Both the position numbers and the translations under genes were made by a program. Under the pieces are notes generated by a model. The model did no database searches and was not told the DNA's origin. It was given only the letters and a program-made list of their open reading frames with translations. Source: Alkanindiges illinoisensis DSM 15370 (GTDB lineage: Bacteria > Pseudomonadota > Gammaproteobacteria > Pseudomonadales > Moraxellaceae). From it: a stretch of 32,000 nt of DNA. The stretch lies in contig NZ_JHUX01000008.1 of NCBI RefSeq assembly GCF_000619845.1, forward strand, positions 30,001-62,000, given 5' to 3'. This document shows positions 1 to 31,388 of this stretch, one piece after another (the stretch's first letter is position 1; the number at the start of each line of letters is the position of its first letter).

Positions 1-2665
1 GACTCAGCTCGCTAGCCAAAGAATCGGCAATCTCTTCATCAACTTCAAATACCAGTTCATCATGCACCTGTAGCAGTAACATGGCCTGATCCTTGGGTAA
101 AATATGGTCAACCGCAATCATGGCTTTTTTGATGATATCAGCCGCCGAACCTTGCAGTGGCGCATTAATGGCGGCGCGTTCTGCGCCCTGACGCACCATG
201 GCATTGCGGGCGTTTACATCCGGCGTATACAAACGGCGACCCATGAGCGTTTCTACAAAGCCCTGCTCGGAAGCCAGCTTGCGGGTGCGCTGCATATATT
301 CATACACACCCGGATAACGCGCAAAATACTGGTTAATGTAAGACTGCGATTCCTGCCGGGACAGCTTGAGCTGCTTGGACAAGCCAAACGACGACATACC
401 ATATAGCAAGCCAAAGTTAATAGTTTTGGCCTGACGGCGCTGATCATTGGTCACGTCTTCGAGGGCAATGCCCAGTACCTCGGCAGCAGTGGCCTGGTGA
501 ATATCCAGCCCCTGCTGGAAAGCACGCAGCAAGGCTTCATCCTGTGAAAAATGAGCCATGAGGCGCAGTTCAATTTGGGAATAATCGGCTGCCAGCAGTA
601 CACGGCCTTGTGGTGCAATAAAGGCCTTGCGGATTTGCCGCCCGGTTTGCCCGCGAATAGGAATGTTTTGTAGGTTGGGATCAGTCGAAGACAAGCGCCC
701 GGTGGCTGTTACTGCCTGATGATAGCTGGTGTGTACCCGGTTAGTACCCGGATCGGCCTGTGCAATCAGGCGATCAGTATAGGTGCTTTTTAGCTTGCAC
801 AGGCTGCGGTGTTCCAGCACTGTGGCAGCAATCGGGTGATCAATTTTTTCAAGCACAGCTTCACCCGTGGCATACTGGCCGCTCGCAGTTTTCTTGCCGC
901 CGGCAATACCAATTTTCTCAAACAGGATTTCACCAAGCTGCTTGGGCGAGGACACATTAAACGGCTGGCCTGCCATTTCAATGACTTGCTGTTCCAGTGT
1001 ATCAATTTGTCCGGAAAACTCATCGCCCAGTTTGGCCAGAAACCCGGTATCCAGCTTGATGCCGCAGCGTTCCATGTGGGTTAAAATTTGCGCCACCGGC
1101 AGTTCCAGCTTGAGCAGTAATTGTTCCAGTGCCGGGTCTTCCTTCAGCTTGCGGCGAAATACTTCATACAAGCGGTAAGTCACGTGCGCATCTTCACAGG
1201 CATACGGCGCAGCTTGCTCCAGCGGCACCTGATTAAAGGTGAGCTGCTTAACGCCCTTGCCAGCCACATCTTCAAAGGTGATGGTCATGTGGCTTAAATA
1301 CAGGCGTGCCACATCATCCATGCCATGCCGGGTTGCTGTTGGATTAAGCACATAAGAGGCCAGCATGGTGTCAAACACCCAGCCTTTTAAATTAATGCCG
1401 TGATTTTTAAACACATGCGCATCATATTTTAAATGATGGCCAATCTTGCCAATGGCTGCATTTTCAAAATAGGGCTTAAGCTGATCCAGAATGATTTCAC
1501 GATTTAACTGTTCGGGCGCATCCAGATAATCATGTGCCAGTGGAATATAAAAGGCATCCTGAGCATCAAAGGCAAATGACAGGCCAACAATTTGCGCCTT
1601 GCGATAATCCAGACTGGTGGTTTCGGTATCAATGACAAAATGATCGGCGTTTTGCAGCCGGGCAAAAAAATCATCAAACTGGGCTTGCGTTAAAATGGTG
1701 TGATATTGCGCCGTACCCAGCTTGTCATCACTGCTGCTGCTTTCTGACTGGCTTTCAAAATTCTGGCTAGCCTGCTGCTGGTTAGGTTCAGTCTGGATTG
1801 CCATTCGGTCCGGATTATTCGGATGTTCCAGCGACTGTAGCTGGCTTCTAAATTCCAGCTCGGTATACAGACGGCGCAGTTCTTCCACATTGGGATTGCC
1901 CAGTTTTAGTTCAGTCCAGTCCAGTCCAACCGGCAGGTCACAGATAATGGTGGCGAGCTGGTGATTCAGTGGAATGCTGTCCTGATGGTCACGGATATTC
2001 TGGCCAAGCTTGCCCTTGATGTTATCCAGATTTTGCAGGATGCCATCAATATTCTGATATTCCTGCAACAGCTTGGCTGCGGTTTTGGTGCCCACGCCCG
2101 GAATACCCTGAATACCATCAGAGGCATCGCCCATCAGGGTCAGATAATCCACAATTTGCTGTGGCCAGACGCCAAATTTTTCAAACACGCCCTGCGTATC
2201 CAGCACGCGGTCGCGAAAGCTGTCTTCCAGATTCACACAATCATTCACCAGCTGTGCCATGTCCTTGTCGCCGGTGGAAATCAGCACATGGTGGCCTTGC
2301 TCGCAGGCGCGTTTGGTCAGCGTTCCCATCAGGTCATCCGCTTCAACGCCGGGCAGGGTGAGCAGGGGAATGCCCAGTGCACGGATCACCGCATGCAAAT
2401 AGGGAATTTGTTCTGCCAGCTCAGAAGGCATTGGCGGGCGATTACCCTTATAAGTACTGGACAGTTTATGGCGAAACGTCGGTTCCGGGGTATCAAAAAC
2501 CACGGCCATGTGCGTGGGTTGCAGGCGGCGCATCAGTTTTTGCAGGGCAGACAATGCACCGCGCACGGCATTGGTAGTGAGTCCGGTAGAGGTGGTTAAC
2601 GGTGGCAATGCATGAAATGCCCGAAACAGGTAATACGAACCATCAACCAGTACAAAAGGGGGCAT
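1..2665 (-). CDS. polA: DNA polymerase I (C-terminal end lies beyond the left window edge)
   Basis: Absent from the ORF track because there is no stop codon inside the window. Reverse-complement translation from ATG (2665-2663) gives MPPFVLVDGSYYLFRAFHALPPLTTSTG, a 5'-nuclease N-terminus. At the left edge the same frame reads ...AMLLLQVHDELVFEVDEEIADSLASELS, the family-A polymerase QVHDE motif region. The frame is continuous over codons 2665..2. The three minus-strand track ORFs in this span are in a different frame. In-frame ATGs at 2680 and 2677 are alternative starts. Confidence 0.95.
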   Translation of the reverse strand, partial: MPPFVLVDGSYYLFRAFHALPPLTTSTGLTTNAVRGALSALQKLMRRLQPTHMAVVFDTPEPTFRHKLSSTYKGNRPPMPSELAEQIPYLHAVIRALGIPLLTLPGVEADDLMGTLTKRACEQGHHVLISTGDKDMAQLVNDCVNLEDSFRDRVLDTQGVFEKFGVWPQQIVDYLTLMGDASDGIQGIPGVGTKTAAKLLQEYQNIDGILQNLDNIKGKLGQNIRDHQDSIPLNHQLATIICDLPVGLDWTELKLGNPNVEELRRLYTELEFRSQLQSLEHPNNPDRMAIQTEPNQQQASQNFESQSESSSSDDKLGTAQYHTILTQAQFDDFFARLQNADHFVIDTETTSLDYRKAQIVGLSFAFDAQDAFYIPLAHDYLDAPEQLNREIILDQLKPYFENAAIGKIGHHLKYDAHVFKNHGINLKGWVFDTMLASYVLNPTATRHGMDDVARLYLSHMTITFEDVAGKGVKQLTFNQVPLEQAAPYACEDAHVTYRLYEVFRRKLKEDPALEQLLLKLELPVAQILTHMERCGIKLDTGFLAKLGDEFSGQIDTLEQQVIEMAGQPFNVSSPKQLGEILFEKIGIAGGKKTASGQYATGEAVLEKIDHPIAATVLEHRSLCKLKSTYTDRLIAQADPGTNRVHTSYHQAVTATGRLSSTDPNLQNIPIRGQTGRQIRKAFIAPQGRVLLAADYSQIELRLMAHFSQDEALLRAFQQGLDIHQATAAEVLGIALEDVTNDQRRQAKTINFGLLYGMSSFGLSKQLKLSRQESQSYINQYFARYPGVYEYMQRTRKLASEQGFVETLMGRRLYTPDVNARNAMVRQGAERAAINAPLQGSAADIIKKAMIAVDHILPKDQAMLLLQVHDELVFEVDEEIADSLASELS

Positions 2666-3203
2666 GTCATCTTTCATCATGTAAAGTAACCATTTTTTAA
2701 AAAGTAGAATTAAATTCTGGCGGGCAGGATGCGCATCAACACATTGGTTTTGTTCCAGCCGGACCTATGCAGAATAACATGAAAAAACCTGAAAATAAGT
2801 GCCACACCAGTACTACATCAGCGTGGAGACATACTGGCAAAGAACGATATTTTTAACCATCTGCCACAGTACTGATGCCAGAAATTCAGGCACAATCAGG
2901 CAAAAAACCGCATAGAAAAAAGCAGGATTAAAGTCTTGAGTATGGCTATTAATATGGAGCAAAAAACGCAAATTTCAACCCGGATTTCACGCCTGTTACC
3001 GTGGTGAACATGGCTTTTGCCAATCATTTATTTTCAGGGTTTAAACAGATAAGTGTGAGGTGAAAGCAGTGATCACCACCTAAAAACCTGGCAGGAAAAA
3101 TAAGAATTTTACCGTTTGCTTCATTTAGCCTTTACATAAACTAAATTTTTAATATATTGCATTGCGGTACGATGAAAAATAAGTAAAACAAGGATAATGT
3201 TCG

Positions 3204-6041
3204 ATGTTTCATTTGTCGTTTTGGGCCATTGTGGTGTTTTTGCTGCCACTGGCCTTGGCTATTGTGGCACTGGTGACCAGCCTAAGAACCCAGCGTCAAC
3301 TGGAACAGGACGTTAGCCGACTGGAACAACTGTTAAAAACCACCATTCAGCAGTCGCAAGCTTATCAACAAGCTTCTGGGCAAACCACAGCTACATCGGC
3401 TCAGGTAGCGGCTCAAGCAGATTCTAGCCAGCAAGTTTTGGCTCATCAATCATCAATAACCGATGACATTCCCGTCACAGCGCATTCACTGGAAAGTCAG
3501 GTGCCTCTTGAACCTGCTGCTACAGCACAAGCTAGTTCCATTGACGAGGATTTAATAGATTCAGCGCCAACAGGGCAAATCGCAAATCCTGCCAAAGCCG
3601 CATGGCCGCAAGCTACTACTTCACCTACGCGCCCACAATTGCTGGAACCGGATGAACAATCCCTGAGTGTGGTGACTTCCATCTGGCATTCCTTTTTGCA
3701 ATGGTTTAAAGGCGGTAATGCGATTGTACGGATTGGGGTGATTGTGCTGCTGGTTGGCGTAATTTTACTGCTGCGACTGGCCAATGACCTGCTGACGATT
3801 CCGATTGAAGTGCGACTCGGCGCAGTGGCGATTGGTGGCGTTGCACTGACCCTGATTGGCCTAAAGCTACGGCAAAACCGGCGCAGCTATGCGATTAGCA
3901 TTCAGGGCGCTGGCCTTGCCATAGTGTACTTTACCCTGTTTGCTGCGTTTCGCCTGTATGAGGTGTTACCGGCCAGCCTGACGTTTGGCCTGCTGGCAAT
4001 TCTGGCAATCGTTAGTGCAGCACTGGCCCTGATGCAAAATGCCTTGCCCTTAGCCTTGCTGGCCTTTGGTGGCGGTTTTTTGGCGCCACTACTGACTTCT
4101 ACCGGAAGCAATAATCTGGTGGGGCTGTTTAGCTATTATTTAATTCTCAATCTGGCACTGGCCTGGATGGCACATTATAAAACATGGAAGGTCTTAAACG
4201 TGCTGGGGGCTGGCATGACCTTTGGCATGGCGGGCTATCTGGGCTGGAATAGCTATGAAGACAGCATGCGCTGGCCATTGGAAGGCTTGCTGCTGGCGCA
4301 TCTGGCACTGTATTTGTTTATTGTGGTGCGTTATAGCCAGCAACTGGCAACCGTGCCAGCCGATGAGTCGGTACGTGTTGCCCCAGTCGATAGCAGCCTG
4401 CTATTTGGTGTGCCACTGATGGGTTTTGCCCTGCAAGCTGGCCTGCTGCATGACATTCCCTATGCACTGGCGCTGAGTAGTGCCGTGTTATCTGAATTAT
4501 ATCTGGCGTTGGGTTACAAGCTGTTTTACCAGAACCGGAAACTGGTGCTGTTGACCGAAGGTGTATTGGCGCTGGGCATTGGCTTTATGGCACTGGTGAT
4601 TCCATTGGCACTGGATGCGCAGTGGACCGCAGTGGGCTGGTCGGTTCAGGGGGCTGCACTGGTGTGGCTGGGCAAGCGGCAAAACCGCATCTGGTCAATC
4701 CGCTTTGGCGTGTTACTGGAAGTCTTAAGCACACTGGCGCTGTTGTGGTTGTCGTTTGATGGCAAGGAACTGCTGTTGCCACTGGTGGTGTATAGCGTGT
4801 GCCTGTTTATTTGTGCCTTGCTAGTGCGTAAGCAGAATCATCAAGGGGTAAATCTGCTATTAAATCTCTTTCAACCTGCCTTTTTAATATTGGCATGGGC
4901 ATTTGCGGCCAGTCAGGTCATGCTGCGTGAGCTGGAACAATGGAGTATGGGGCATCAGGTTTACTGGCCTTTGCACCACTTGCAATTTAGTTTGTATCCA
5001 CTGATTTTTATATTTATAACAATGTTGGCCAGCTGGCGTTTTTACTGGCCGCAGCTTAGCTTGTTAATCCGGCTGATTCTGGCTGCACTCACCCTGCATG
5101 CTGCTGTCATCTGGCTTGACTATGGGCATTTGCTGGTGCATCGACCACTTCTGCTACTAACCATTTTTAGCTATGCAGCCTTTGGCCTATTGGCAATTCA
5201 GCGACTTTCCCGACAGTTAATTTATGCCAATACCCTGCAAGAAGCAGCGTCTTCTACCCAGCAGCATAGCCTGTCCAGCCGTGTTGAGCAGGCCATCTGG
5301 GCAATGGGCTTATTGATCTATAGCAGTGTGCTGTTACAGGTGTACTGGATCAAACAGCCGATGATTGCCATGATTATTTTGCCACTGGGTCTCATCAGTG
5401 CTTTATTACTGGTTAAAAAACCATTGTTGCTCATTCAGCGCCACACGCTGCTGCATGATTTAAGTGTTCCGGTGAGTGTGGCGCTATTTGGCTGGATGAT
5501 GGCTGCCAATTGGCTGTCTAGCGGGCAAATAGGTGGTTTGCCGTATATCCCCGTGCTGAATGTGCTGGACATTTGCCTGATTGGTGCTGGATTAGTGATT
5601 TACCGTTTAATGATGGATTTGCCACCAGTATTGATAAAAGTGGCACAGGCTGGATTGGGTATTGCTGCATTTTTTAGCTTAACCAGCCTGATTATTCGCA
5701 CCCTGCATCAATGGGCAGGTACACCACTGTGGGAAAATGGCGCATGGCAGGTTGATCTGGTGCAAACCAGCCTGACCATTATCTGGACTTTATGCGCCCT
5801 GATACTAACAGGTTTGGCCAGTCGCTATGGCTGGCGGCAGGTATGGCTGGCGGGCATTGCCTTGCTGGCAGTCGTGGTGATTAAGCTGTTGCTGGTGGAT
5901 TTATCCAATGTGGCCGCCATTGCACGTATTGTGTCTTTTATTGGCGCAGGCTTGATTATGCTGCTGATTGGTTATATTGCGCCTTTACCGCCTGTAAAAA
6001 TAGCCGAAATTCCACCATCTTCACCTGAATCCAGGGAATAG
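3204..6041 (+). CDS. Very large polytopic inner-membrane protein (945 aa), DUF2339-like
   Basis: The N-terminus has a TM helix (FWAIVVFLLPLALAIVALV). It is followed by a coiled-coil-like LRTQRQLEQDVSRLEQLLKTTIQQ and then a Q/A/S/T-rich low-complexity linker of about 120 aa. More than 20 hydrophobic helices follow, starting at GGNAIVRIGVIVLLVGVILLL. The DUF2339 name is recalled from this architecture, not searched. Confidence 0.8.
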   Translation: MFHLSFWAIVVFLLPLALAIVALVTSLRTQRQLEQDVSRLEQLLKTTIQQSQAYQQASGQTTATSAQVAAQADSSQQVLAHQSSITDDIPVTAHSLESQVPLEPAATAQASSIDEDLIDSAPTGQIANPAKAAWPQATTSPTRPQLLEPDEQSLSVVTSIWHSFLQWFKGGNAIVRIGVIVLLVGVILLLRLANDLLTIPIEVRLGAVAIGGVALTLIGLKLRQNRRSYAISIQGAGLAIVYFTLFAAFRLYEVLPASLTFGLLAILAIVSAALALMQNALPLALLAFGGGFLAPLLTSTGSNNLVGLFSYYLILNLALAWMAHYKTWKVLNVLGAGMTFGMAGYLGWNSYEDSMRWPLEGLLLAHLALYLFIVVRYSQQLATVPADESVRVAPVDSSLLFGVPLMGFALQAGLLHDIPYALALSSAVLSELYLALGYKLFYQNRKLVLLTEGVLALGIGFMALVIPLALDAQWTAVGWSVQGAALVWLGKRQNRIWSIRFGVLLEVLSTLALLWLSFDGKELLLPLVVYSVCLFICALLVRKQNHQGVNLLLNLFQPAFLILAWAFAASQVMLRELEQWSMGHQVYWPLHHLQFSLYPLIFIFITMLASWRFYWPQLSLLIRLILAALTLHAAVIWLDYGHLLVHRPLLLLTIFSYAAFGLLAIQRLSRQLIYANTLQEAASSTQQHSLSSRVEQAIWAMGLLIYSSVLLQVYWIKQPMIAMIILPLGLISALLLVKKPLLLIQRHTLLHDLSVPVSVALFGWMMAANWLSSGQIGGLPYIPVLNVLDICLIGAGLVIYRLMMDLPPVLIKVAQAGLGIAAFFSLTSLIIRTLHQWAGTPLWENGAWQVDLVQTSLTIIWTLCALILTGLASRYGWRQVWLAGIALLAVVVIKLLLVDLSNVAAIARIVSFIGAGLIMLLIGYIAPLPPVKIAEIPPSSPESRE

Positions 6042-10895: not shown

Positions 10896-10945
10896 GTAAA
10901 TAGTTTTCAAAATTTAAGATTAGATAAAGCACTGAGAATACTAAT

Positions 10946-12130
10946 ATGTCAAATGACTTAAATAATTCAACTGACCATGACATACGGCTTGAGCAAAGCA
11001 GTAATATTGTACCGCTTGATCAGGACGCTATACCGAATTTAAATACGCAGATTGATGAGTTTATTCATTCAGTTATTACATTGGATATTCAGCAAAAAGA
11101 TTTTCAAGATAAAGTAAATAGTGTTCATCAATTAGGTCAGCAAACAGTTGTAAAGACTGCCGGCTTTAGTCAGCGCTTACTATCACGATCCATAAAAAAA
11201 ATGGATGATGATGAAGAGGCTAAAGGTATTGGTCAAAGTTTAATTGACCTTAAACAAACCCTTGAAGCATTAAATCCTGCCAACAATACTAGTTTTTTCA
11301 GTAAACGGAAATTGCTGGGCTTTATTCCCTTTGGCAGCAAAATAGAAGATTATTTTGATAAATATAAATCGGCGGAAGCACATTTATCAACCATTTTGAT
11401 TGCTTTGGATAAGGGTAGAGATGAGTTATTAAAAGATAACATTGGTATAGAACATGATAAAAAACAACTTTGGACACTGATGCAACAATTAGAGCAATAT
11501 ATCTATATTGGCCGGCAGCTGGAGCAAATTTTAACTGAAAAACTATATGATATTGAGTTGCAGCATCCTGAAAAGGCAAGAGTGATTAAAGAAGAAGTAG
11601 TGTTTTATTTGCATCAAAAAATAACTGATTTACTGACACAACAAGCTGTCGGTATGCAATCTTATTTATCACTTGATTTGATTCGCAAGAATAATTTTGA
11701 ATTAATTAAAGGTGTAGAGCGTGCTACCACCACGACTGTAGCAGCATTGCGTACCGCGATTGTGGTCGCACAGGCCTTAGCTAATCAGAAGTTGGTTTTA
11801 AAACAGGTTGATGCCGTTAATAAAACGACTGAAGATTTAATTGTTGCTACAAGTAAAATGTTAAAAAACCAAACTAAAGATATTCAAATACAGGCGAGTA
11901 GTAGTGTAATTAATTTGGATAAACTACAGACTGCTTTTAACAATACTTTTGAAACAATTAATATGGTCAATGATTTTAAAATTCAGTCAATTGACAAAAT
12001 GCATAAAAATATTGAGGTATTAAACCAGCAATTAGAAACAGCAAGAAGCTATCTGGATCAAAATAAGGAATATGAAGTAAAAACACATCTTGCAAGTCAT
12101 CAGATTAAAAGTGACAACGGGAACATTTAA
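10946..12130 (+). CDS. telA: TelA-family (toxic anion resistance / KlaB-YaaN-like) protein, 394 aa
   Basis: The protein is all-helical and soluble. TelA-like blocks are present: ALDKGRDELLKDNIGIEHDKKQLWTLMQQLEQYIYIG and FYLHQKITDLLTQQAVGMQSYLSLDLIRKNNFELIKGVERATTTTVAALRTAIVVAQAL. The gene is strongly AT-rich compared with gspE, which ends 50 nt upstream. Confidence 0.85.
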   Translation: MSNDLNNSTDHDIRLEQSSNIVPLDQDAIPNLNTQIDEFIHSVITLDIQQKDFQDKVNSVHQLGQQTVVKTAGFSQRLLSRSIKKMDDDEEAKGIGQSLIDLKQTLEALNPANNTSFFSKRKLLGFIPFGSKIEDYFDKYKSAEAHLSTILIALDKGRDELLKDNIGIEHDKKQLWTLMQQLEQYIYIGRQLEQILTEKLYDIELQHPEKARVIKEEVVFYLHQKITDLLTQQAVGMQSYLSLDLIRKNNFELIKGVERATTTTVAALRTAIVVAQALANQKLVLKQVDAVNKTTEDLIVATSKMLKNQTKDIQIQASSSVINLDKLQTAFNNTFETINMVNDFKIQSIDKMHKNIEVLNQQLETARSYLDQNKEYEVKTHLASHQIKSDNGNI

Positions 12131-12143
12131 TATTATTAAACTA

Positions 12144-12176
12144 AGGATTTAATTTTATATTTAATAATTAAATCCT
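12144..12176. terminator. Perfect 11-bp AT-rich hairpin between convergent genes (candidate bidirectional terminator)
   Basis: aggatttaatt (12144-12154), an 11-nt loop, then aattaaatcct (12166-12176). It sits between the telA-like stop (12130) and the stop of the 322-aa gene (12205). There is no clean U-run on the plus side, and the minus side has a modest one. Confidence 0.45.
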
Positions 12177-12204
12177 GATTCAAAGCTTTATTCTTGGAGT
12201 GATT

Positions 12205-13173
12205 TTATTGAATGTAAAAATAACTTCCATGATAGCCACCTTGAAATGTAAAATCATCTTTACCTGTAATCTCTTTGACAGATTTTTTCAGTTTTTCAGT
12301 TAATTGGTAACTATAAAAATACGGATAGTTTAACTTAATACATCCTCGACAAAAAGATTCCTCATAAGTATTAATAAATACAGGAATATCAAAGGGTAAT
12401 CCCTTAATTTTCTGGGATTCATAACCAGTAAGGATTATAGCTTTAATATTTTTGCTTTTAGTGTGTACATCCCATACAGCATTATTATAAGCATTTAAAA
12501 TCAGTATGGTTGGGGGTATCTGATCAGCAATTTCTATCTCAACACTAAAATTTGTGTATGGAGAAGAAGGATGCCAATAAGCATAATCCGCACACATAGA
12601 AGCTTGGTTTGAATTAGCCTGATTATATCCTTCTAGTGCTTCACAAATTGCAAATAAATTACGATCATCTGTCTCTTCGGTTGAAGAAGGATCATGTACA
12701 GCAATAACTACAATTTGAGCATTTTTTGCTAACTGCTTAAGGCTCTGCGGATTTATAGGTTTAGCATATAAAGCACGTTTAGCTTGATCACTGCTCAATT
12801 CTTTTTTAAATTTCTTAAATTTTTGATCGTAACTATCTTTGTCTTTTTGCCTTAGTTTCGCTAATGATTTTTTAAAAATTTGGTCTTGCTCTGTTATAAC
12901 TGTTTGTTCCGTAGAGTCTTCTTCAATATTATCTAAATTTTGCTTGATTTGTTCAGCATAAGTTTTTGCATGTGCAGCATCTACTTTAGCAATTCGTGCA
13001 GCATCTATAGCTGCCTTTAATTGTCTCTGATCGTTAGTATACCTTCCATTACTAACCTGATGCTTAATGCCTATTATAAATAAAGTTGCAATAACAAAAA
13101 TAAAATTAATTCCTATTACCATAAAAGAATAATTATGAAATATCTTTATATATAATATAATTTTTTTAAACAT
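12205..13173 (-). CDS. Single-pass membrane protein of unknown function (322 aa), paralog of the 226-aa protein
   Basis: It has a Lys-rich N-terminus and one TM helix (FMVIGINFIFVIATLFIIGI), then an Ala-rich helix (QLKAAIDAARIAKVDAAHAKTYAEQIKQ) and a K/D/Q-rich insert. The C-terminal domain shares the motifs PPTILILNAYNNAVW, AIILTGYESQKIKG and ITGKDDFTFQGGYHGSYFYI with the neighbouring gene. Confidence 0.7.
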   Translation of the reverse strand: MFKKIILYIKIFHNYSFMVIGINFIFVIATLFIIGIKHQVSNGRYTNDQRQLKAAIDAARIAKVDAAHAKTYAEQIKQNLDNIEEDSTEQTVITEQDQIFKKSLAKLRQKDKDSYDQKFKKFKKELSSDQAKRALYAKPINPQSLKQLAKNAQIVVIAVHDPSSTEETDDRNLFAICEALEGYNQANSNQASMCADYAYWHPSSPYTNFSVEIEIADQIPPTILILNAYNNAVWDVHTKSKNIKAIILTGYESQKIKGLPFDIPVFINTYEESFCRGCIKLNYPYFYSYQLTEKLKKSVKEITGKDDFTFQGGYHGSYFYIQ

Positions 13174-13219
13174 ATCATAGATTCTATTTTAAAAGTTATT
13201 AAAGTTTAATTGAAGAGAT

Positions 13220-13900
13220 TCAGATTTCATTTTTAATGAAAAATGATTCTGCATAATATTTTTCCTGATAAGAAGTAATAGCTTTCCTAGTTAATTTATA
13301 AACAGTTGTTGATATGGATTCATCCTGTGTATTGTATGTATTATGACTAAAAGCTGCACGTAATTCTCCCGTTACTCCTGTGACATGCTGAGAGCAGCAA
13401 CCACCAAAAATAATAGCATTAACTTCTGTGTTATCTTTTTTTTCAATAGTCCAATTAATAGGTTGATAGGCTATTAAAACAAGAGTAATAGGGTTTTTAG
13501 AGTTACTAATAATAACTTTAACCTGTTTTAAAGGTTGCTTGGTATTTTTTGTATAGCACTTTTCATAGGACATTTTTTCACATTCGGGAGTATACCAAGC
13601 ATATATATTTGAAATCTTTTTATCATAGATTCTGATGGCATGAACCTCAGTGTCTTGGCTTAGTTCAAGTGTGTTAGAGTTAAGCGAGTTCAGAGTGTCT
13701 TGTGCACTTGCAGCAGCTTCAGCTGCTTTTATAGCTGAATTTTTAGCATCTTGAGCTGCTTCCTGAATCGTATCCCTTATCATTTTGGCTTGGGTAACAT
13801 TAGCCTCAGTTTTATTGGGAATAGAGATAGGACGTATTATCATAAATAAAGTACTTAGGACAAAAATAGCATTCACCATTTTCACAGTATAAAAATGCAC
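13220..13900 (-). CDS. Single-pass membrane protein of unknown function (226 aa), paralog of the 322-aa protein
   Basis: The GTG start at 13900 lies 2 nt after the upstream TAA stop (13905-13903). A GAGGA Shine-Dalgarno sits within the last codons of the upstream gene. An alternative ATG is at 13879. The protein has one TM helix (AIFVLSTLFMII) and an Ala-rich helix (IQEAAQDAKNSAIKAAEAAASAQDTL). Its C-terminal domain carries PITLVLIAYQPINW, AIIFGGCCSQHVTG and LTRKAITSYQEKYYAESFFI. Confidence 0.7.
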   Translation of the reverse strand: MHFYTVKMVNAIFVLSTLFMIIRPISIPNKTEANVTQAKMIRDTIQEAAQDAKNSAIKAAEAAASAQDTLNSLNSNTLELSQDTEVHAIRIYDKKISNIYAWYTPECEKMSYEKCYTKNTKQPLKQVKVIISNSKNPITLVLIAYQPINWTIEKKDNTEVNAIIFGGCCSQHVTGVTGELRAAFSHNTYNTQDESISTTVYKLTRKAITSYQEKYYAESFFIKNEI

Positions 13901-13902
13901 TT

Positions 13903-14631
13903 TTAGTCCTCAGCTTCTATTTTAAAGAACTGATAAGGTTTTAATTTTTGATTTAAAAATTCAGCATGTAATGTAAGGCCAGTTAAATTATCAGCCAAAA
14001 TATTATCTAGCATTGTATATAATTCATTTTTGAGTAATTCAAGCTGTTCAATGAGCAAGTCTTTTGCAGTTTTTTCATCATTAATGATTCGATTACTTGC
14101 ATAGTAGCGGGGAATTTTTAAATAATTTTCTATAGTAGGTTGTAAGTATTCATATACAATTTTTTGAGTCTTATTAATTTCTAAAGAGAAAACATCATTA
14201 CGTGTTTCAGTTTGTTGATAGAGCATTAATAGTATTTGGTAAATCTCATTCAATATTTTTGTTGCACTATAGGGTAACTCAAGTTGATGGGTAATTTTTA
14301 ATTGCAAAAAATCATCGATAAAAGGGCTAATTTTATTCCGAGCATGTGAATCTTTATGTTGTATAGTTGGTAAATTCTCTGTGAGAGAAAAAACTGGTTC
14401 AGAAGTTGAAACATTCAAATCTGTAGAAGATTCTTTTTCATTATAGTTTTGATCTGAGGGAAATATTTTTACGGCAGCAAACCAACCAGCACTGTAAAAA
14501 ATAATTAGGACTGTTAACCATGACCAAGTGATTACTCCCATCCAAATCATTACGTAGCCAACAATAGTACTAATACATCCTATAAGGTGTTGGCGAGAAC
14601 TTAGAAATATTTGGGCTTGGGTGGAAGACAT
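13903..14631 (-). CDS. Two-TM membrane protein with cytoplasmic helical domain (242 aa), XpaC-like (putative TelA partner)
   Basis: An N-terminal TM hairpin (LIGCISTIVGYVMIWMGVI / WSWLTVLIIFYSAGWFAAV) is followed by a linker and a helical C-terminal domain (KIVYEYLQPTIENYLKIPRYY...LLIEQLELLKNELYTMLDNILADNLTGL). The architecture matches what I recall for the XpaC family, which is encoded next to TelA/YaaN in Firmicutes. The assignment rests on architecture, not on a search. Confidence 0.6.
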   Translation of the reverse strand: MSSTQAQIFLSSRQHLIGCISTIVGYVMIWMGVITWSWLTVLIIFYSAGWFAAVKIFPSDQNYNEKESSTDLNVSTSEPVFSLTENLPTIQHKDSHARNKISPFIDDFLQLKITHQLELPYSATKILNEIYQILLMLYQQTETRNDVFSLEINKTQKIVYEYLQPTIENYLKIPRYYASNRIINDEKTAKDLLIEQLELLKNELYTMLDNILADNLTGLTLHAEFLNQKLKPYQFFKIEAED

Positions 14632-14793
14632 ATGTTCTCTATTATGAAATTATATGAATATATAAAATAAAGTTTAATTCCTGCAATTAACTAAAGCTAG
14701 CGCTTTATTAGCGGATATAATTTTATGGCAGCGAGTGTTAGCCTAAGGGATTGTAAGTCAAATTAGCCAAACCTACTATACAAAGAGAATCCC

Positions 14794-29535: not shown

Positions 29536-30444
29536 ATGAAGCTTTTTACTAAACTCGCTTTAGTTTCCGCAGTGGCAATTAGCGGTCAAGCAATGGCAAT
29601 GCAATCAATGGATGACTCAGCTCTAAGCTCTACAACTGGTCAAGAAGGCATCACTTTAACCATTAAAACTGATGAAGTTAAAATTGGTAAATTGATTGTT
29701 CATGACAACGACGGTCTGTCTACTGCTGCTACTATTAGCCCAACTACTGCTGCAACTGCTGGCGGTACAGCGACTGGTGGTGGTATCACTGTAAATGGCG
29801 TAAGCGTTAAAGTGGATACTACTAGTCCATTTGCTTTGGCATCAGCTGGTGCTCGTGCTGCACTGGGCTTAACCAATGACGTATTGGCAATTGTAAAAGT
29901 TGACGCTGACGCTGGTGCTGGCGGTACTGCTCCAGTTCTGAACGTAAACATGCTGAACAATGCTATGGCTATCCATGTTGACAGCATTGGTGTTGGTGCT
30001 TCTAACAGCGTAGCTTCAATGGCTGGTAAAGCACGTCGTGGTGTAACTAGTGAAGTTTCCCTGATTGAAAACGTTGATCTGACTATTGGTGCCAGTGCAC
30101 TGAACATTCAACTGGGTAATCAGCCACAAGGCGCTATGATTGCTGCTAACGGTGTAATTGGTGGCGGTATCCGTATTGCTAACCTGACTGTTAACGACAA
30201 TGTTGGTGGTGGTCAAGTTGGTATTCAGAACATGGCAATTACCAGTGCTGACAGCACTAACCTGACTGTTAATACACTGATTGGTGTAAACAACCAAGGT
30301 CTGTCTATCAAATCAACTGGTGCTAACGACATCTACATGGGTTCCATCAAACTGGGTGATCTTTCTACTGCTGCTTCTTTAGGTTCTATCGAAATTCAGG
30401 GTATGGAAATGGTTAACTCTGAAATTCTGGTATCTGGCCACTAA
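29536..30444 (+). CDS. Secreted Gly/Ala/Thr/Asn-rich protein, FilA / DUF6160-like putative pilus-system subunit (paralog 1, 302 aa)
   Basis: A strong SD (gtaggagag) precedes the gene. The signal peptide is MKLFTKLALVSAVAISGQAMA. Conserved motifs are SMDDSALSSTTGQEGIT, HDNDG, VKVDADAG, PVLNVN and NIQLGNQPQGAMIA, and the C-terminus is ...ILVSGH. There is no Cys. The FilA/DUF6160 name is recalled from Acinetobacter annotations. Confidence 0.75.
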   Translation: MKLFTKLALVSAVAISGQAMAMQSMDDSALSSTTGQEGITLTIKTDEVKIGKLIVHDNDGLSTAATISPTTAATAGGTATGGGITVNGVSVKVDTTSPFALASAGARAALGLTNDVLAIVKVDADAGAGGTAPVLNVNMLNNAMAIHVDSIGVGASNSVASMAGKARRGVTSEVSLIENVDLTIGASALNIQLGNQPQGAMIAANGVIGGGIRIANLTVNDNVGGGQVGIQNMAITSADSTNLTVNTLIGVNNQGLSIKSTGANDIYMGSIKLGDLSTAASLGSIEIQGMEMVNSEILVSGH

Positions 30445-30454
30445 TAGGCTGTGG

Positions 30455-30484
30455 GCCGACAATAGTAATATTGTCGGCTTTCTT
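30455..30484 (+). terminator. Rho-independent terminator after FilA-like paralog 1
   Basis: gccgacaat (30455-30463), the loop agtaat, then attgtcggc (30470-30478), followed by tttctt. Confidence 0.8.
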
Positions 30485-30536
30485 GACTTGATTTTTGGTA
30501 ATCAGTCTTATCTTCAAGGGAACAGGGAACAATACG

Positions 30537-31388
30537 ATGAAAACTTTAACAAAATTAGCTTTGGTTTCTGCTATGGCAATCAGCAGCAGTGCTTTTGCTC
30601 TGGAATCGCTTGATGATTCAACGCTGAGCCAAACCACAGGTCAGGATGGTATTACAATCAAGTTGGATGCACAGGCTGATGGTACAATCTTTGGTGCCGA
30701 TAATATTGTTGTTCATGATAACGATGGTGTAGGTACAGCAAGCTACGGTATTGCTACCCCTTCTGCCGGTGCGATTGTACTGGGTAAAAAGTCTGATGGT
30801 ACAGGTACTGGTTTTAGCATTAAAGGTGCAACAGGTGATGCGGTAGTCATTAAAGTTGATGCCGATGCGAATGGTACTTCACCTGTATTAAACGTAAATA
30901 TTGGGTTGCCAACAGCTTTAACTGTAAATACTGGTGATATCTATGTAGCCAAATCTAATGGCGTTGGAGCTACTGGTGCACAGTTTGCTAATGAAGCTAA
31001 AATTTTAAATAACATCACTGTAAGTCTTGGTGGTGCACAGATGAATGTTCAGTTAGGTAATGCGCCACAAGGTGCGATGATTGCCTTAGGTGGTAGTGTA
31101 GCAGGTGGTGTAAATATCGCTAACCTGGAGCTGCAAGATAACTCAACTGGTGCTGGTGGCGTAATTCACCTTGGCAACATCAATATCCGTGATAAAGGTG
31201 CTGCTAACTTAAGTTTAGGAACTAATATCAAAGCTACTACTGATGGTTTATCAATTGTTCGTACAGCTGGTGATGTTGACGTTCGACTAACTGCAGTTCA
31301 GTTGGGTACAGCAAATGCTGCCCATCAAGTTGGTGATATCGCAATTTTGGGTATGAAAGTGCCTAACATGACTATTAGTGGCCATTAA
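30537..31388 (+). CDS. FilA / DUF6160-like secreted protein (paralog 2, 283 aa)
   Basis: The ATG at 30537 gives MKTLTKLALVSAMAISSSAFA-LESLDDSTLSQTTGQDGIT, parallel to paralog 1. The track ORF begins upstream at 30495. It shares HDNDG, IKVDADANG, PVLNVN, NVQLGNAPQGAMIA and the ...MTISGH end. Confidence 0.75.
   Translation: MKTLTKLALVSAMAISSSAFALESLDDSTLSQTTGQDGITIKLDAQADGTIFGADNIVVHDNDGVGTASYGIATPSAGAIVLGKKSDGTGTGFSIKGATGDAVVIKVDADANGTSPVLNVNIGLPTALTVNTGDIYVAKSNGVGATGAQFANEAKILNNITVSLGGAQMNVQLGNAPQGAMIALGGSVAGGVNIANLELQDNSTGAGGVIHLGNINIRDKGAANLSLGTNIKATTDGLSIVRTAGDVDVRLTAVQLGTANAAHQVGDIAILGMKVPNMTISGH

Follow-up and report, generated by a model that had tools for sequence, protein, structure and literature searches.

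Two paralogous membrane proteins of a TelA cassette in Alkanindiges illinoisensis carry an unannotated domain that likely has the fold of the betaglycan/endoglin orphan domain

Mutations in endoglin cause hereditary haemorrhagic telangiectasia type 1 (HHT1), and betaglycan (TGFBR3) is needed for TGF-beta2 and inhibin signalling. The orphan region of endoglin, a protein confined to amniotes, has been presented as 'a new fold' that shows no homology to known structures; its beta-helix-like unit, with 12 strands and one helix, is duplicated and circularly permuted (PMC5464963). In the orphan domain of betaglycan, the loop PNSSSAFQ, situated between the strands EVHIIEL and VDVIVD, is essential for TGF-beta binding (PMC11865472). 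In bacteria, it has been proposed that Ter stress/defence systems include TelA as a sub-membrane component, and Ter/TelA systems have been linked to phage resistance, TelA genes being found also in jumbo phages (PMC7824862). TelA and its Firmicute membrane partner XpaC alter daptomycin binding and lipid-domain organisation in Enterococcus faecium (PMC6811118). These two subjects meet in a stretch of 32,000 nucleotides from Alkanindiges illinoisensis DSM 15370 (contig NZ_JHUX01000008.1, positions 30,001 to 62,000), referred to here as the window, in which two adjacent genes at 12205-13900 encode single-pass membrane proteins of 322 and 226 residues (p322 and p226) beside a TelA gene. With a probability of about 0.55, p226 and p322 serve a TelA-type module of envelope stress or defence as its variable periplasmic arms for ligand binding or sensing.

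p322 is encoded on the minus strand from an ATG start (12205..13173). It consists of a transmembrane or signal-anchor segment (residues ~17-36, 13066..13125; Kyte-Doolittle maximum 2.67), an Ala/Lys/Asp/Gln-rich stalk lying between this segment and the first strand of the domain (residues 37-150, 12724..13065), and a C-terminal orphan-domain-like domain of what is called here 'type A' (residues 151-322, 12208..12723), delimited by a profile envelope of the same residues, an AlphaFold2 model and Foldseek. p226 is read from a GTG on the same strand (13220..13900), a start backed by N-terminal similarity to its homologues. It has a transmembrane or signal-anchor segment according to its hydropathy (residues ~8-27, 13820..13879), a short Ala-rich stalk and an orphan-domain-like domain of 'type B' (residues 85-226, 13223..13648), delimited by alignment, AlphaFold2 and Foldseek; both reading frames are also supported by profile matches. 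An earlier note on this DNA, made from the letters alone, had regarded the two proteins as paralogs of the same layout, and hydropathy and sequence agree with it: in each protein, a single hydrophobic segment near the N-terminus leads into a stretch rich in Ala, Lys, Glu and Gln and then into the C-terminal domain, and the three motif pairs listed in the note are all found in colinear order.

The formal pairwise alignment is significant. BLASTP aligns p322 211-290 with p226 127-212 at E 1e-5, and the Smith-Waterman score of 74 lies far above that of shuffled sequences (31.3 ± 5.5, z 7.8), none of 2000 shuffles having equalled it. A profile built from the repeats of unrelated proteins of at least 600 residues recognizes p322 with E 2e-21 and p226 with E 5e-15, values computed for a database of 1.8 billion sequences. 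p322 and p226 are true paralogs with a common C-terminal domain. Judged from the relatives, their paralogy is old, p226 belonging to a separate type B lineage that is present in other cassettes too. A recent tandem duplication in this genome has been rejected, since types A and B are separately conserved elsewhere, and so has the view that the genes are spurious open reading frames (ORFs) of AT-rich DNA, since their homologues are conserved and syntenic.

The extent of the domain needs to be redrawn. Instead of the ~110 residues given in the earlier note, it comprises ~172 residues in p322 and ~142 in p226, because an upstream strand belongs to it (AQIVVIAVHD at 151-160 of p322, TEVHAIRIY at 85-93 of p226; E-[IV]-H-x-I-G-V-Y in its conserved form). 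Likewise, p322 does not carry a single insert of ~100 residues: its 96 extra residues are spread over the stalk (~57), the loop between the first two strands (~16) and a segment marked by CxxC-FYSY (~20). Type A domains keep this CxxC-FYAY segment while type B domains are devoid of it, and comparison of the sequences indicates that it is ancestral and has been lost by p226.

No model covers the domain of the window proteins in Pfam-A 2025, NCBIfam 20, PADLOC or PHROGs 4, in accordance with the failure of the earlier note to assign it to a family. A word-indexed search with the single proteins or with a 58-sequence profile gave only the window proteins, as if these were true orphans; this status was rejected when an exhaustive HMMER search found a family. 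Its query was a profile made from both C-terminal regions, and it collected 905 clusters at E<=1e-3 and, at E<=1e-10, 179; the domain thus stands for a family of at least 905 protein clusters. In the more than 80 family members examined, neither a Pfam nor an NCBIfam model lies over the domain, and source names refer only to other domains. The family consensus reads igvY...V.V.V..t.kPiVLvLtAYePV.W.i..a.Gv.I.kVILsGYh.Q.i.GiP..vPV...Ty..S.C..C.rg.gyFYAYk.....kL..iTGL...SFQG.Y.G.sF.I. Searches of plasmids, phage records and viral contigs with the domain revealed no relatives, and exact-sequence contig look-ups with p226 and TelA gave no match.

The family occurs in two forms. In the single-copy form, the domain follows one transmembrane or signal segment in proteins of 200-290 residues built like p226 and p322; in the multi-copy form, two to five tandem copies lie within large proteins. 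In 102 of 150 members, the first copy comes after a hydrophobic signal or transmembrane segment, 93 of the 150 having one such segment. Among 68 large members, 12 begin with regions 2 and 4 of an extracytoplasmic function (ECF) sigma factor, followed by a transmembrane helix and then by domain repeats, sometimes with a C-terminal esterase, and eight have ankyrin repeats; RCC1, MORN, Sel1, PA14 and the M56 peptidase of BlaR1 are further fusion partners. One member ends in a type IX secretion sorting tail (Por_Secre_tail). These fusion architectures imply that the domain is extracytoplasmic, where sensor or ligand-binding domains normally sit, and they point to an extracytoplasmic binding or sensor module. 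A recurrent family of ~350-residue proteins on metagenomic contigs of 43-47% GC (L041-L075, for example L063 5368-6432) combines an N-terminal cytoplasmic region of ~150 residues, a transmembrane helix and one orphan-domain-like domain, resembling a one-component transmembrane sensor. On two further contigs (L076 2-1180, L077 4573-6507), the domain is joined to a region that ends, as judged by eye, in an SPRY-like motif (…NFGETPFKYSIP…).

The orientation that the earlier note had proposed for p322, with the N-terminus inside and the shared domain in the periplasm, draws indirect support from the preceding transmembrane or signal segments, the ECF sigma fusions, the sorting tail and the placement of cysteines, and p226 and p322 are probably both single-pass proteins of this kind. 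Each of the two has four cysteines, every one of them within the domain, while TelA has none and p242, the product of the first gene of the operon, has one in a transmembrane helix; the confinement of cysteines to the domain fits an oxidising compartment. In p322, the loop between strands 1 and 2 is 50 residues long, is predicted to be helical and contains C177 and C194 (C-x16-C), and the motif SFCRGC provides C275 and C278. The corresponding loop of p226 contains C107-x7-C115, and GGCC (C168, C169) replaces GY. The domain is probably stabilised by disulfides. The strand 1-2 loop is the most variable element of the bacterial family: it is short in the sigma-fused repeats, extends over 20-50 residues with a Cys pair in the TelA-linked subfamily, and is wholly different between p226 and p322. 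The CxxC motif might instead indicate a periplasmic thiol-redox or metal-binding module, as the S-x-C-x-x-C motif is conserved together with the second Cys pair in the TelA-linked subfamily, p322 included. However, cysteines are missing from most of the family, for example from the sigma-fused repeats, p226 and its orthologues have a deletion of the CxxC segment, and the fold is not thioredoxin-like, all of which makes such a function very improbable.

AlphaFold2 models of both domains, built without templates, have a predicted local distance difference test (pLDDT) score of 86.3 and a predicted TM-score (pTM) of 0.78 for residues 151-322 of p322, and of 87.6 and 0.81 for residues 85-226 of p226. 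Both models have 9-10 strands and one main helix before the last two strands, and the order of elements is the same: strand 1 leads into the variable loop, after which come six to seven strands, the helix and a last pair of strands. In the Foldseek search against PDB, the top eight matches of the p226 model are all orphan domains of betaglycan (TGFBR3) or endoglin (E 4e-4 to 6e-3, probability 1.0, TMq 0.42-0.56, root-mean-square deviation down to 3.7 A), and the ninth match has E 0.85. The p322 model, which carries a low-confidence loop of 45 residues, yields the same top matches more weakly (E 0.015). A fold search of BFVD gave no match. The check with AlphaFold and Foldseek that the earlier note had suggested thus leads, for both domains, to the betaglycan/endoglin orphan domain, with which the bacterial domain likely shares its fold, as far as the predicted models can tell. 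The note had added that a clear hit to an already characterised domain would refute its observation; the match obtained is only weakly of that kind, being remote (E ~1e-5, TM ~0.5) and falling short of family membership.

A link to the same proteins is also obtained from sequence. Against all PDB sequences, the 58-sequence family profile finds orphan-domain chains of TGFBR3 with E 5.1e-5, 1.1e-4 and 1e-3, aligning to both orphan-domain units at EVHII...V.V.V...P.V..L....P..W.I. Comparison by hhalign of the bacterial profile with a vertebrate profile, made from six repeat units of human, rat and zebrafish orphan-domain sequences taken from the PDB alignments, gives a probability of 82.5 and E 9.8e-6 with a confident alignment of ~52 columns. 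At relaxed stringency, the two profiles are colinear over 122 columns, through the helix and the [VI]TS[FY] strand, and the bacterial 'kL..iTG...SFQG.Y.G.sF.I' is paired with the vertebrate 'LL.WA...G..[VI]TS[FY]....A..F.[IL]'. With two bacterial profiles, real betaglycan sequences obtain 14-26 bits, and the highest score among 6000 shuffles is 8-11 bits. In the reciprocal direction, a hidden Markov model (HMM) of the vertebrate unit exceeds the 99.9th percentile of the respective shuffles for 96 of 153 bacterial segments, and p226 obtains 15.0 bits. The betaglycan strands EVHIIEL and VDVIVD align to bacterial strands 1 and 2. A match to the PRP28 helicase in PDB, seen with a two-sequence profile (E 0.005), was dismissed as chance, having gone with the deeper profile. 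The orphan domain of betaglycan itself has no Pfam model, and in the literature searched, no paper was found that links the betaglycan/endoglin orphan domain to bacteria.

The likeness might nevertheless have arisen by convergence, the domain being an unrelated periplasmic beta-rich module, such as a TolA-like tether to peptidoglycan or the outer membrane. TM-scores to the orphan domain are only 0.42-0.56 (TMq, p226 model) and root-mean-square deviations are 3.7-8 A for the two models, the sequence alignment is confident over only the ~52 columns, and the layout, in which a long charged helical stalk links a transmembrane segment to a globular domain at the C-terminus, is TolA-like; moreover, direct descent is hard to picture for a protein restricted to amniotes, as endoglin is (PMC5464963). 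On the other hand, sequence-only and structure-only searches independently pick the same PDB proteins (from ~177,000 sequences and 350,000 chains), the repeat units of the vertebrate domain both match one bacterial motif, the relaxed alignment remains colinear as far as the helix and the strand beyond it, and the shuffle controls are clean, whereas no TolA or peptidoglycan-binding Pfam domain is detected. Convergence is therefore considered quite unlikely, and common ancestry of the bacterial domain and the orphan domain is probable. A wider proposal can be put forward tentatively: the vertebrate 'orphan' domain might descend from, or share ancestry with, a widespread bacterial sensor domain, whose single or tandem units would represent the state before duplication and permutation, and which would form a new class of periplasmic recognition module with a fast-diversifying ligand loop, feeding ECF sigma factors, BlaR1-type proteases and, in this cassette, a membrane-protection system based on TelA.

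The genes for p226 and p322 belong to a low-GC cassette of four genes between gspE and ribE (10896..14793), delimited by the GC profile and by comparison with the relatives L001-L005 and L089. It spans 3.7 kb at 31% GC in a genome of ~48% GC; the low GC is persistent, with 31-34% in the cassette against 47-50% in its flanks. The host is an Alkanindiges species of the Moraxellaceae, and its ribE shows 94% identity to the ribE of A. illinoisensis. On the minus strand, p242, p226 and p322 follow one another, the stop codon of p242 abutting the start of p226, and a TelA gene converges on this three-gene operon. The TelA-family protein (10946..12130, plus strand; PF05816, E 2.5e-79) has 394 residues with neither cysteine nor transmembrane segment. 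p242 (13903..14631, minus strand), as read from its ORF, hydropathy and homologues, has two N-terminal transmembrane helices and a helical C-terminal domain. Between the convergent stops of telA and p322, a perfect 11-bp inverted repeat, AGGATTTAATT/AATTAAATCCT (12144..12176), was read in the sequence and is likely a bidirectional terminator. There is neither a tRNA nor an Rfam element in the window.

Relatives of the cassette come from metagenomic and Sequence Read Archive (SRA) contigs. L034 and L089 have, in this order, a p242-like gene, type A and type B, with a convergent TelA gene; L032 and L033 have type A and then type B, with a convergent TelA gene; L035 has a p242-like gene, one domain protein and a convergent TelA gene. 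The linkage of TelA to domain proteins is thus kept in five contigs, and the window TelA is 87% identical to that of L034 and of L089. In L036, which has a p242-like gene and one domain protein, TelA's place is taken by a convergent gene for a Gln-rich helical protein of 273 residues (2574-3395), which shows no Pfam match and no BLAST similarity to TelA. Homologues of p242 are found in L034, L035, L036 and L089, and p242-like proteins also stand beside TelA and vWA/substrate-binding lipoproteins on replicons of Deinococcus, Variovorax and Sphaerotilus (L037 4986-5624, L038 4758-5384, L087 7791-8471). Neither p242 nor five of its homologues have a Pfam match, for which reason the candidate identity of p242 as XpaC was rejected, and a scan of viral contigs with p242 found no relatives. 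From these comparisons, p242 appears to be an unannotated family that is a recurrent neighbour of TelA, and TelA with a p242-like protein looks like a conserved core recruiting varied extracytoplasmic partners.

L089, a 72-kb contig of a related genome, has its cassette at the identical gspE/ribE site and allows the rates of divergence to be compared. Identity with the window is 80-96% in the flanks and 87% in TelA, and falls to 57% in p242, 42% in type B and 25-34% in type A, so that the proteins in the membrane and periplasm are evolving apart much more quickly than the cytoplasmic one and the chromosome around the cassette. In a comparison of 12205-13900 with L034/L089 9303-11493, the A- and B-type domains have swapped gene positions between the window and L089, and the transmembrane-plus-stalk part of p322 best matches the second gene of L034 (42 versus 26 bits), which hints at recombination or domain shuffling between the tandem paralogs. 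At the same site, L003 and L004 have gspE and ribE side by side, and an ORF of 461 residues resembling GIY-YIG proteins occupies it in L001, L002 and L005. The gspE/ribE intergenic site is a hot spot for variable cargo in Alkanindiges, with the TelA cassette in the window and in L089. Elsewhere in the window (29536-31388), another adjacent paralog pair, tandem DUF6160 proteins of 302 and 297 residues, lies in a stretch of ~40% GC.

Such a setting also suggests a defence or exclusion island, in which the periplasmic domains would bind phage or colicin-like proteins as blockers or decoys while TelA guards the membrane. The variable-cargo site with its GIY-YIG-like gene in relatives, the persistently low GC of the cassette against that of its flanks, the very fast divergence of exposed components beside conserved TelA and flanks, the possible domain shuffling between the paralogs, and the ties of Ter/TelA to phage resistance together with the TelA genes of jumbo phages (PMC7824862) are all in its favour. 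Against this, none of the four proteins has a PADLOC model, the best match being no better than E 0.15, and searches of plasmids, phage records and viral contigs gave no relatives for the domain, p242 and the island DNA. None of the four genes matches the Ter families, TerB, TerC and TerD being without counterpart, and the flanks consist of housekeeping genes. Such an island is rather unlikely; it overlaps with the reading of p226 and p322 as sensing arms and differs from it mainly in the target, foreign proteins instead of the cell's own envelope state. Location in a hot spot, low GC and hypervariable exposed parts fit a foreign target (phage or bacteriocin) as well as envelope damage, and the conservation of TelA next to hypervariable exposed partners suggests selection by external agents.

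How p226 and p322 might act as such arms can be outlined from architecture and context, which is where ligand binding, coupling to p242 and TelA, disulfides, topology and physiological role are all taken from. p226 and p322 would be type II inner-membrane proteins, whose helical stalks of ~57 and ~114 residues, respectively, would project the domain into the periplasm. Ligand specificity would probably reside in the hypervariable strand 1-2 loop, at the position of the TGF-beta-binding loop of betaglycan, and types A and B might differ in their targets, meet one and the same target at unequal depths, or form a pair like that of the vertebrate units. Since p226 and p322 have almost no cytoplasmic residues, a signal must pass through a partner, presumably p242; it would be handed on laterally to this co-translated protein with its two transmembrane helices, the helical domain of which might engage cytoplasmic TelA beneath the inner membrane.

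Several observations weigh against this picture. The link to the orphan domain is remote, with TM-scores of ~0.5, and small beta-helix-like folds can arise by convergence; single HMM domain matches to betaglycan are each insignificant (13.0 and 11.3 bits), the hhalign probability is 82%, the vertebrate HMM gives p322 only 5.0 bits, and one shuffled decoy reaches 15.7 bits. The wider family as a whole does not conserve the cysteines, and the positive-inside signal of p226 is weak. p242 has no detectable similarity to XpaC (no match to PF10112), only the transmembrane-plus-helical layout being alike, and it is unrelated to the 277-residue membrane protein adjacent to TelA in Bacillus. None of 46 metagenomic domain loci has TelA or p242 neighbours, the linkage to TelA being limited to a small subclade, so that little can be concluded for the entire family from the TelA context.

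The paralogy, the family with its architectures, the predicted fold with its orphan-domain match, the conserved cassette and the different rates at which its genes diverge are established, and p322 and p226, far from being a private pair of orphans, represent a large uncurated family and belong to a conserved, fast-evolving TelA cassette. If the link to the orphan domain holds, the evolution of a domain described as a new fold without homologues can be traced to an origin, and the domain has relatives by the hundreds that are simpler and consist of one unit. The extracytoplasmic domains of bacteria would include a large unannotated family at sensor positions, its ligands becoming a concrete experimental question, and TelA, whose mechanism remains obscure, would be provided with a defined periplasmic input.

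Among the known systems, the orphan domain of betaglycan (TGFBR3) and endoglin (PDB 6MZP, 9B9F, 9FDY, 5I04) is the closest. It is the sole significant Foldseek match of the window domains, and like the p322 and p226 models, it is a beta-helix-like unit with a single alpha-helix (PMC5464963). The two share a motif of an EVH-strand, V.V.V, P.V..L....P..W.I, the helix and [VI]TS[FY], the bacterial domain is probably, like the vertebrate one, an extracellular module of single-pass membrane proteins, and the variable strand 1-2 loop of the bacterial domain coincides with the ligand-binding loop of betaglycan. The vertebrate domain is, however, a duplicated, intertwined and circularly permuted OR1/OR2 pair, whereas p226 and p322 have one non-permuted unit each and their relatives simple tandem arrays. 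The bacterial proteins are probably of type II orientation and lack a zona pellucida (ZP) module, while the vertebrate proteins are of type I. The orphan domain has a conserved intradomain disulfide and binds ligands of the TGF-beta family; each window protein has its four cysteines at non-equivalent positions. Sequence identity is ~12-16%, and the bacterial ligands cannot be proteins of the TGF-beta family.

In the XpaC-TelA pairs of Firmicutes and in the operons of TelA, vWA and p242-like genes, TelA stands beside a small protein with N-terminal transmembrane and helical parts and beside extracytoplasmic partners, as it does here. In the window, the partners are orphan-domain-like single-pass proteins instead of vWA lipoproteins, TelA is convergent instead of co-directional, and p242 does not match the XpaC model of Pfam. 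In ECF sigma/anti-sigma fusions and BlaR1-type (M56) proteins, the domain of the relatives sits exactly at the sensor position, after the transmembrane helix in the sigma-fused proteins and also in one M56 protein, but p226 and p322 have almost no cytoplasmic portion, and their cassette includes neither a sigma factor nor a protease. TolA-like proteins have the same transmembrane anchor, long Ala/Lys/Glu-rich helical stalk and C-terminal globular domain; p226 and p322 differ from them in showing no match to TolA domain III and in having neither tolQR nor pal in the cassette. Collectively, the fold is the known part of this system, and the bacterial family with its context is the new one.

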